From IMG/VR virus record IMGVR_UViG_2529293069_000032: a stretch of DNA of 39,738 nt; one strand, written 5' to 3'. This DNA comes from a virus. Taxonomy: Duplodnaviria; Heunggongvirae; Uroviricota; Caudoviricetes. The stretch's first letter is position 1; every line of letters begins with the position of its first letter. The notes below the pieces were generated by a model. It searched no databases and was not told the DNA's origin. It saw nothing but the letters and a program-made list of their open reading frames with translations. The position numbers and the translations under genes were made by a program. Positions 36,655 through 37,794 of the stretch are shown here, piece by piece.

Positions 36655-37794
36655 GTGGGAAACAATAAAGTGAAATTAGGAAGAAATGATAAGTGCTGGT
36701 GTAATTCAGGACTTAAGTATAAAAAGTGCCATCTTGGTCGAGACCGTGAAACTCCGGTATCCAAAGCCGAGGCACTGAAATTTTCAAAGTCTCTCTCGCA
36801 GAGAAAGGCATGTTATGCGCCAGCATCCATGCACGAAGATTGTGATAAACGCATCGTTCAGGCGCATACGATATCTAAGAGCAGTAGCCTTAAGGCGATC
36901 GCCGACTCCAGCAATCACGTCATGGGGGTGATAATGAACTTAGCAAGCCTGATGAGAAACAACGGAAAATGGCTTCCCGAGAAGATCGGTATCAATCAGG
37001 CATCCACTTTTACAGGATTTTGTGCAGTTCATGACAGAATCTTGTTTTCATGCCTAGAGAACGAAAAATTTACAGGCACGGACGAGCAGTGCTTTGCCTT
37101 AATGTTTCGTTCATTGTCTAAAGAAATTTACGCCAAAGAAGGGGGAGTGCTATCTTCCGATTTTGCTAAAAATGCCGATAAAGGAAAGCTACAAGTTGAA
37201 CAGTATTATATTCAGAAATTAATCGACCAGCACCAAAGTGGCTTAAATGCAGCAATAATTGAATTAAATAATCTTAAAACTAGCCTCGACCGCATCCTAC
37301 TTAGCAGGCAATTTTCAGAAATTGAAAGTGTTATCTTCACTTTTGCAGAGCCTTTACCAATTGTAGTTTCGTCAATTCTTTCACCGGAGAGGGATTTCGA
37401 TGGGACCAAAATTCAGGATTTGAGCGATCTTACAGTGTCGGCGGAACAAGTATGTTTCAATGCTTTTTCCTGCGGAGGTAAGGGATATGTAGTGTTCAGT
37501 TGGCTGAGAACTTCAACAATTATCAGACGTTTTATACGGACACTAATTAAGATCCCGGCTAACAGGATGTTCAATACCCTTCTGTATTTTTTCTTCACAA
37601 AGGCCGAAAATACATATTCATCCCCTGAGTGGTGGGACAGGCTCAGTGATAAACAGCGAGAGAATATCGGCAACATGATTATGTCAGGGGTTGAATTTTT
37701 TGGCAGACCTACATCACAGGTTGATCATTCCGTTGATTATAACGCCGCTGCACTTGAAGAGATAACATGCAGCAACAACGAAATTTGCAGCTGA
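36655..37794 (+). CDS. SEC-C-motif protein with large uncharacterised C-terminal domain (cargo between D and ogr)
   Basis: 379 aa; N-terminal CWCNSGLKYKKCH matches the SEC-C zinc-ribbon consensus; AT-rich; preceded by about 375 bp of AT-rich non-coding DNA. Confidence 0.7.
   Translation: MGNNKVKLGRNDKCWCNSGLKYKKCHLGRDRETPVSKAEALKFSKSLSQRKACYAPASMHEDCDKRIVQAHTISKSSSLKAIADSSNHVMGVIMNLASLMRNNGKWLPEKIGINQASTFTGFCAVHDRILFSCLENEKFTGTDEQCFALMFRSLSKEIYAKEGGVLSSDFAKNADKGKLQVEQYYIQKLIDQHQSGLNAAIIELNNLKTSLDRILLSRQFSEIESVIFTFAEPLPIVVSSILSPERDFDGTKIQDLSDLTVSAEQVCFNAFSCGGKGYVVFSWLRTSTIIRRFIRTLIKIPANRMFNTLLYFFFTKAENTYSSPEWWDRLSDKQRENIGNMIMSGVEFFGRPTSQVDHSVDYNAAALEEITCSNNEICS

Follow-up and report, generated by a model that had tools for sequence, protein, structure and literature searches.

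The 39,738-bp stretch of DNA analysed here (the window; IMG/VR record IMGVR_UViG_2529293069_000032) is a complete P2-like prophage of the P88 type from Escherichia coli O157:H7 strain 493/89. An integrase gene lies at one end; at the other, the late-gene activator gene ogr is followed by a Hok/Gef gene and the leuZ tRNA gene. Between tail gene D and ogr lies a single gene for a protein of 379 amino acids (aa), which full-length sequence homology places in the Rugutis family of lactococcal anti-phage proteins. An earlier note on this DNA had described the gene as single-gene cargo with an N-terminal SEC-C motif, and had implied a role in defence. The open reading frame (ORF) is where that note placed it, and the same call is made at RefSeq. 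A second possible GTG start lies five codons in (36670, MKLGRN...) and suits many homologues. The gene and the features around it are collected in Table 1.

Table 1. Features of the prophage and of the segment inserted between D and ogr
Feature	Coordinates	Strand	Remarks
Integrase gene	1..1002		One end of prophage
Tail gene D, C-terminal fragment	35455..36255	+	Left flank of insertion site
Target-site duplication, left copy AATTAGA	36259..36265	.	One mismatch to right copy
Left terminal inverted repeat, 26 bp, TGTATTGACTCAAACCAGAACTGACA	36266..36291	+	Matches terminal repeat consensus TGTATTAGCTCAGACTTGAnCTGACA
Non-coding leader, 363 bp	36292..36654	+	Presumed promoter/5' untranslated region (UTR)
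Rugutis-family gene, 379 aa, GTG start, WP_001317900.1	36655..37794	+	RefSeq annotation identical, named 'YecA family protein'
SEC-C zinc-binding motif, residues 10-27 (C14, C16, C25, H26)	36682..36735	+	Pfam PF02810
Conserved core, residues 53-152	36811..37110	+	260-sequence alignment; candidate second metal site and active site
Helical hairpin, residues 143-217 (helices 143-175, 180-217)	37081..37305	+	AlphaFold model
3' spacer	37795..38018	+	Short hairpin 37816-37871; no ORF of note
Right terminal inverted repeat, 26 bp, TGTCAGTTGGAGTCTGAGCTATTACA on + strand	38019..38044	-	
Target-site duplication, right copy ACTTAGA	38045..38051	.	
ogr late-gene activator	38084..38344	+	Right flank

The D-ogr junction is variable among E. 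coli prophages. Its flanks were matched in 1,214 of 5,426 complete E. coli genomes, and the full segment of the window was present in 80. In an evenly spaced sample of 50 E. coli junctions, 36 were empty, four held the Rugutis-like gene and ten held other single genes. The empty junction of related prophages measures 42 bp from the D stop codon to the ogr start codon (D-stop GCAACTTAGAATAGCGG...ATG(ogr)). The phages closest to the window among those sequenced are P88-like Xuanwuvirus, and in P88 the junction is empty. Canonical P2, which according to the earlier note has no gene here, was not among the relatives retrieved by megablast.

Different cargo in other P2-like prophages, which that note had proposed looking for, is indeed found. 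At least five unrelated single-gene cassettes, in either orientation, occupy the same site in E. coli, encoding a 221-aa hypothetical protein, a 340-aa protein with a sub-threshold match to RiboL-PSP HEPN, a 352-aa ParA/AAA_31 ATPase, a 389-aa DUF3800 protein and a 384-aa hypothetical protein. PADLOC recognised zero systems among these five, which therefore stand as candidates to test. Two induced phages, 500465-2 and 520873, also have cargo at D-ogr. The sharp contrast in composition claimed for the insert survives in part: GC content is 0.425 in the cassette versus 0.536 in the late genes, but 29 of 320 equal-sized segments elsewhere in the prophage are as low.

The inserted segment is 1,779 bp long (36266..38044) and has the anatomy of a transposed element. 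Its ends are imperfect inverted repeats, TGTATTGACTCAAACCAGAACTGACA and the reverse complement of TGTAATAGCTCAGACTCCAACTGACA, and the heptamer ACTTAGA, single in the empty site, brackets the cassette as AATTAGA and ACTTAGA (6/7 match). All other D-ogr cargo variants have recognisably homologous ends, the right one of which is missing from the empty site. With the junction mostly empty, unrelated cassettes in some relatives, and transposon ends and a target duplication around the insert, the description of the gene as cargo is well borne out. The Rugutis homologue is the only ORF of at least 90 aa in the cassette, and no transposase is encoded.

The same arrangement recurs elsewhere. A homologue with 86% identity in E. 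coli EH41 lies in a RepL/H-NS island, outside any P2-like phage, and is bounded by the repeats seen in the window (22/30 complementary) and by a perfect duplication of GATAGC. Sought with up to seven mismatches in 1.58 Mb of loci, the repeat had no other match. A degenerate core pattern of the repeat was found in 119 IMG/VR contigs, 51 of which have correctly oriented repeat pairs 0.8-8 kb apart. Perfect 7-bp duplications flank 19 of these 51 elements, at 14 distinct AT-rich sites with the consensus nwTwAwn, and 40 of the 51 loci lie outside D-ogr junctions. These loci, and the same gene with its terminal repeats in the EH41 island, show movement as a unit to unrelated sites.

Elements with the same ends that do encode a transposase were also found. 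Two 1.2-kb IMG/VR elements (L204, 1200 bp, and L221) comprise the repeats and one ORF for a 346-aa transposase of the IS481 family of insertion sequences (IS), which scores 283.6 bits against NCBIfam NF033577 (cut-off 224) and matches Pfam HTH_29 and rve_3. At a third IMG/VR locus (L128), two inverted copies surround two genes. E. coli RM9513 has an element of 1,202 bp annotated at RefSeq as 'IS481 family transposase', frameshifted, with a perfect GCTAAAA duplication and repeats that differ from the terminal repeat consensus at 1 and 4 positions. Such IS481-family elements with these ends occur in 5 of the 5,426 E. coli genomes. Because the window element has IS481-type ends but encodes no transposase, we regard it, on sequence grounds, as a mobile insertion cassette that either descends from this IS481-family group or is moved by it; its mobilisation by such a transposase is predicted. 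The terminal repeats were sought around the homologues in Salmonella, Citrobacter, Pantoea, Klebsiella, Psychrobacter, Pseudomonas, Pseudoalteromonas and Lactococcus and found at none of them, so the cassette is not the universal vehicle of the family.

Two further observations concern the autonomous elements. Placement of L204 at a D-ogr junction, an idea prompted by an ACTTAGA duplication, was ruled out by tblastn and tblastx. The RM9513 element follows a tyrosine integrase gene at a tRNA-Leu island, beside genes for a hypothetical protein and a DEAD/DEAH helicase (962-6159), and this locus may be another defence-type island.

Sister cassettes with these ends carry a range of other passengers: a ThsB1-type TIR protein (E 6.5e-126), PDC-S31/DUF2971 (in two cassettes; DUF2971 is a domain of the lactococcal Aristaios system), a 619-aa OLD/AriA/GajA-like ATPase, PDC-S45, a PIN_8 protein and an Hp1-Hp2-Hp3 trio. 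Defence or candidate-defence models were matched by five of the first ten cargos sampled.

The protein itself presents a short recognisable motif and a long remainder. Pfam PF02810 matches residues 10-27, at the extreme N-terminus as the earlier note had it, with an E-value of 2e-8 and 34.4 bits against a cut-off of 20.4; the pattern C14-W-C16-x8-C25-H26 is a CxCx8C[HC] zinc knuckle of the SEC-C/SecA type and exceeds the Pfam threshold. A profile search of the Protein Data Bank (PDB) matched only metal-binding peptides of SecA and YchJ, 20-30 residues long (E 6.5e-8 to 3e-5), and the matches in PADLOC (E2/E1-E2 and PDC-S12), NCBIfam and PHROGs fall entirely within the motif. The other ~350 aa, correctly called unrecognised, gave zero matches in profile searches of Pfam, NCBIfam, PADLOC, PHROGs and PDB, so that a match of the C-terminal region to a non-defence family was looked for in these libraries and not found.

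Since the profile matches are confined to the SEC-C motif, the RefSeq name 'YecA family protein' is a motif artefact. Membership in the YecA family, which combines a UPF0149 domain with a C-terminal motif, was rejected: the YecA model NCBIfam PRK10396 reaches 17.9 bits where the cut-off is 149, and covers residues 4-27 only, the motif is N-terminal, and there is no UPF0149 domain. The name, together with the SecA- and YchJ-like motif, is nevertheless what would recommend a non-defence moron with a role in host physiology tied to the SecA metal-binding domain, for instance a factor that works with ribosomes or SecB, to both of which metal-binding domains of the SecA type bind. The PRK10396 match extends over a mere 24 motif residues, however, and the position of the motif, the lack of UPF0149, the patchy, mobile-element-borne distribution of the family and its homology to a protein with demonstrated anti-phage activity make this reading unlikely.

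That homology covers almost the whole protein. Rugutis (pUCCL633_059, 359 aa) is a lactococcal single-gene defence resembling abortive infection (Abi) systems, and acts after DNA injection (PMC11381338); it is encoded on the Lactococcus plasmid pUCCL633A (Grafakou et al. 2024; Mosterd et al. 2025). It is activated by the large terminase (TerL) of phage c2, and escape mutations lie in the TerL ATPase domain (PMC12184496). In strain UCCL633, plasmid pUCCL633A (NZ_PP589699.1) has a gene for a 'SEC-C domain-containing protein' of 359 aa, WP_137016746.1, to which BLASTP aligns the window protein over 358 residues with 26% identity (E 2e-37); the alignment is collinear, beginning at the SEC-C motif and running nearly to the C-terminus. 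With a 97%-identical copy from L. lactis the E-value is 6e-38, and a reverse tblastn search from the lactococcal gene recovers an E. coli copy (CP061244.1, in the plasmid collection) at E 8e-30. In the lactococcal homologue, too, Pfam finds SEC-C only. By these alignments the window protein is a distant, Gram-negative, prophage-borne new member of the known Rugutis family. The earlier opinion that function is not evident from sequence is thereby superseded, and the implied defence role gains support both from this homology and from the defence-type cargo of sister cassettes.

The family is coherent along its length. In 260 sequences including Rugutis, residues C53, C63, H71, C123, H126, D127, F131 and R152 are invariant, and E135, E157, K161, Q183, K208, Q254, W283 and E318-N319 are at least 92% conserved and kept in Rugutis. 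A search of 1.84 billion cluster representatives returned 3,107 matches at E<=1e-3 and 659 at E<=1e-30, nearly all of ~370 aa and aligned end to end. A word-indexed search, in which full-length matches reached as low as 37% identity, found relatives in Salmonella, Citrobacter, Pantoea, Klebsiella, Aeromonas, Psychrobacter, Pseudoalteromonas, Halomonas, Providencia and Pseudomonas, and scattered relatives occur in Chloroflexota, Desulfobacterota, Alphaproteobacteria and Firmicutes. A scan of genome contigs yielded ~13 full-length relatives among many unrelated SEC-C proteins. Rugutis is missing from PADLOC and DefenseFinder, so its relatives go uncounted.

The conservation also bears on whether the gene is alive. 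An IS30 copy (34197..35348; transposase on the minus strand) splits gene D within 33923-36255, and the window copy of the prophage is therefore probably defective. This damage, with the single mismatch in the target duplication, could be read as a decaying, non-functional passenger of a defective prophage. Yet the ORF of WP_001317900.1 is intact and 100% identical in 419 member sequences, including genomes with intact D (in O26:H11 strain 11368 an intact D lies beside the identical cargo protein), and every family-invariant residue is retained; we regard decay as highly improbable.

An AlphaFold2 model of the window protein, built from a 36-sequence alignment, has a predicted local distance difference test score (pLDDT) of 88.5 and a predicted template-modelling score (pTM) of 0.87. 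It places after the SEC-C knuckle a four-stranded beta/alpha core (residues ~50-140), a helical hairpin of ~75 residues and a C-terminal beta/alpha region (220-345). Comparison of the predicted fold gave no significant PDB match. In the model, strand 118-123 leads directly into helix 124-135, and this element holds C123, H126, D127 and E135. The C-x9-C...C-x2-H spacing of C53, C63, C123 and H126, with the second pair at the strand-to-helix junction, suggests a second structural zinc site, and H71, D127, R152, E135 and E318-N319 form a candidate active or ligand site. Two structural ideas could not be substantiated: for an HNH or His-Me finger nuclease, prompted by the conserved His, Asn and Cys residues, there was no match to a nuclease profile or to a beta-beta-alpha-metal fold, and a treble clef found no better support.

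Homologues lie in diverse settings. That of Salmonella Typhimurium (86% identity; cluster P0006, 524 member sequences) is in an integrase-AlpA-DUF927 island (AAJPNL010000026.1, 5726-15694), where it adjoins AAA_21 and DUF4435 genes, the domain signature of PARIS; because of these neighbours the island holds two defence loci. The Citrobacter freundii homologue lies amid HEPN-RES, HEPN_Swt1, DUF6932 and DUF4238 genes, that of Pantoea adjoins DUF6602 and an IS element, and that of Klebsiella aerogenes is at the edge of an unrelated prophage. Plasmid-borne homologues occur in Lactococcus, Enterococcus, Shinella, Sphingomonas, Rhizobium and others. In the INPHARED collection, Listeria phages LM 4-11-1 and LM 4-14-1 are the only sequenced phages with a homologue, at 29% identity over residues 2-284, in records that are unannotated. 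The homologues thus sit on prophages, islands and plasmids rather than being fixed in phage-free core chromosome; it is such fixation that the earlier note would have counted against its proposal. No partner gene is conserved in any context examined; the gene is always solo.

This solitude weighs on a further alternative, that of a selfish toxin or addiction-type gene which stabilises the cassette or prophage and is not anti-phage. Attempts to bring Rugutis constructs into two lactococcal hosts, or to keep them there, failed, and this suggests latent toxicity; the gene travels on a transposon-like cassette, and ogr is closely followed by a Hok/Gef toxin gene. In none of the contexts, however, is the gene accompanied by an antitoxin partner or a conserved neighbour, and Rugutis alone lowers phage plaquing. 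The Hok/Gef gene is kept in all junction variants, empty or occupied by any cargo, and is therefore independent of the cargo. We consider an addiction role quite unlikely. The Hok/Gef-family gene itself (38536-38676) is followed by terminator-like hairpins at 38685-38708 and 38762-38789.

Also to be weighed is a gene that benefits the phage, either by acting in its P2-like life cycle or by countering satellites or the defences of the host; a late-gene, packaging or anti-P4 factor would be an example. Its position between late gene D and late activator ogr, and the fact that the trigger of Rugutis is a terminase, fit such a role. Most related phages, on the other hand, are without any gene at D-ogr, unrelated cargo in either orientation takes the same site, homologues reside on plasmids and phage-free islands, and zero sequenced P2-like phages in INPHARED carry the gene. 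A phage-benefit role is, in our judgement, very unlikely.

The leader upstream of the gene travels with it. Its last ~175-180 bp (about 36480..36654) are kept in the window and in Salmonella, Citrobacter and Pantoea despite unrelated surroundings, and because of this conservation the gene is suggested to carry its own expression signals. The conserved part may be a private promoter or a regulatory 5' UTR. Rfam found no RNA family within 35500-39738. The site in this region that most resembles a promoter (CTGACA-16-TACAAT, 10/12, at 37997-38024 on the minus strand) overlaps the right terminal repeat and faces into the cassette, antisense to the cargo gene; in cassettes with minus-strand cargo, the equivalent site would drive the cargo.

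From this material we think it likely that the gene is a single-protein, Abi-type defence of the Rugutis family, the passenger of a transposase-less, IS481-ended cassette that entered the 42-bp spacer between D and ogr by transposition. By analogy with the lactococcal protein, activity against phages would be expected in E. coli. In a lysogen, the protein would be made from the co-travelling leader and, as for Rugutis, would stay inactive until a late protein of a foreign infecting phage switched it on. Once activated it would arrest or kill the cell before progeny release, and sister lysogens and the prophage would be protected. Within the protein, C53, C63, C123 and H126 would form the second zinc site, H71, D127, R152, E135 and E318-N319 would form the metal-dependent catalytic or ligand site that constitutes the toxic effector, and the helical hairpin and SEC-C knuckle would serve the binding of a partner or trigger. 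By the same analogy TerL, the trigger with phage c2, would be the likeliest single candidate in E. coli, although its being the trigger there is tentative and rather doubtful.

Several points weigh against this interpretation. The prophage encodes its own large terminase (gpP, 13609..15360), which poses a problem of self-triggering for a terminase sensor, and mutant TerL stayed toxic with Rugutis (PMC12184496), so the trigger model is incomplete for Rugutis itself. WP_137016746.1 is equated with Rugutis by strain and plasmid name, exact length and SEC-C content, not by a published sequence. The experimental evidence for defence in the family comes from the lactococcal protein only, and at 26% identity function, especially trigger specificity, may differ. 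The proposed zinc and active sites are drawn from conservation and predicted secondary structure. Some homologues have ordinary-looking chromosomal neighbours, as in Psychrobacter (next to parC) and Pseudoalteromonas. As to an own upstream promoter region, which the earlier note had proposed, the leader kept in four unrelated contexts speaks for it, but the promoter scan upstream of the gene found no strong sigma-70 site.

A bolder generalisation, to which we give slightly less than an even chance, is that IS481-ended cassettes are a dedicated shuttle that drops single anti-phage genes into short intergenic spacers in temperate phages, with D-ogr of P88/P2-like phages a recurrent landing pad, and that the Rugutis-like protein is a new zinc-dependent effector enzyme with an unprecedented fold. 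If true, defence genes at phage hotspots would turn over by transposition, and the unsolved mechanism of this defence could be approached in E. coli. The Rugutis family is known experimentally while its fold and effector chemistry are unsolved; a homologue in an E. coli P2-like prophage makes it testable with standard coliphage panels and genetics. Carriers of the gene (~80 of 5,426 complete E. coli genomes) include strains of O157, O26, O103 and O111. The cassette, for its part, offers a checkable route by which unrelated defence genes come to share one spot in related phages: transposition of non-autonomous elements with IS481-type ends, and not only recombination in conserved flanks.

Other parts of the prophage show further accessory genes. 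At the position of the old/tin hotspot, from the replication endonuclease to the portal gene (9174-11914), lie genes for ParM and a partition protein, a 280-aa hypothetical protein and a DUF4760 protein, among which no recognised defence system was found. After the tail-fibre genes, at a Z/fun-type position, lie a gene for a macro-domain protein (25928..26830), which overlaps the last part of the tail-fibre gene, and, on the opposite strand, one for a serine O-acetyltransferase (27461..28033); both (25928-28033) are probably further accessory cargo. The block of tail sheath, tube, tape-measure and U genes (28190-33765) is on the strand opposite to D, while in the canonical P2 map FI-FII-E-T-U-D are co-directional. 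As O26:H11 strain 11368 shows the same arrangement, the opposite-strand block is a lineage feature, possibly of the P88 type, and not damage.

Compared with Rugutis, the window protein is likewise the product of a single gene on mobile elements, with an N-terminal SEC-C motif, similar length (379 versus 359 aa), eight core residues in common and a confident predicted fold without a PDB match. The two differ in sequence (26% identity) and in setting, a Gram-positive plasmid as opposed to a Gram-negative prophage. The fourth zinc ligand is Cys in Rugutis and His in the window protein; H88, N114 and D175 are conserved in the gammaproteobacterial clade but not kept in Rugutis; and IS481-type repeats flank the window gene whereas none flank the lactococcal genes. 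With YecA and the C-terminal metal-binding domain of SecA (PF02810), the window protein shares the CxCx8CH zinc knuckle, but in it the motif is N-terminal, UPF0149 and SecA domains are absent and the remaining ~350 aa are unrelated. Terminase-sensing defences (the STAND NTPases Avs1-3 and lactococcal Rhea) would have in common with it, through Rugutis homology, the large terminase as presumed trigger. The window protein is much smaller, without STAND, NTPase or TnsE-like domains, and unrelated in sequence and fold.

The vehicle, an IS481-ended passenger cassette recurrent at D-ogr, is more novel than the protein. The searchable literature yielded no description of such IS481-ended cassettes; a 2026 survey covering P2/P4 hotspots is silent on them and notes the view, assumed in current surveys, that prophages seldom contain transposable elements. 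One preprint (10.1101/2024.10.15.618418) mentions a 'third hotspot between a tail protein and CI', which may overlap the D-ogr site. The known P2 accessory hotspots are old/tin, between gpA and portal, and Z/fun, in the tail region (Rousset et al. 2022). The D-ogr junction is like them a variable locus with low-GC accessory genes, often defence-related; it differs in location, and in receiving single-gene cassettes with transposon ends instead of exchanging cargo by flanking homology.

Among transposable elements, mobile insertion cassettes (MICs) and transporter IS are derived from IS and carry passenger genes but no transposase. The window cassette resembles them in its IS-type terminal repeats, target duplication, passenger gene, lack of transposase and counterpart autonomous IS with the same ends. 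It differs in having IS481-family ends (26-bp terminal inverted repeats, 7-bp nwTwAwn target), and cassettes of its type lie mostly in phage and prophage genomes, many of their passengers matching defence or candidate-defence models.

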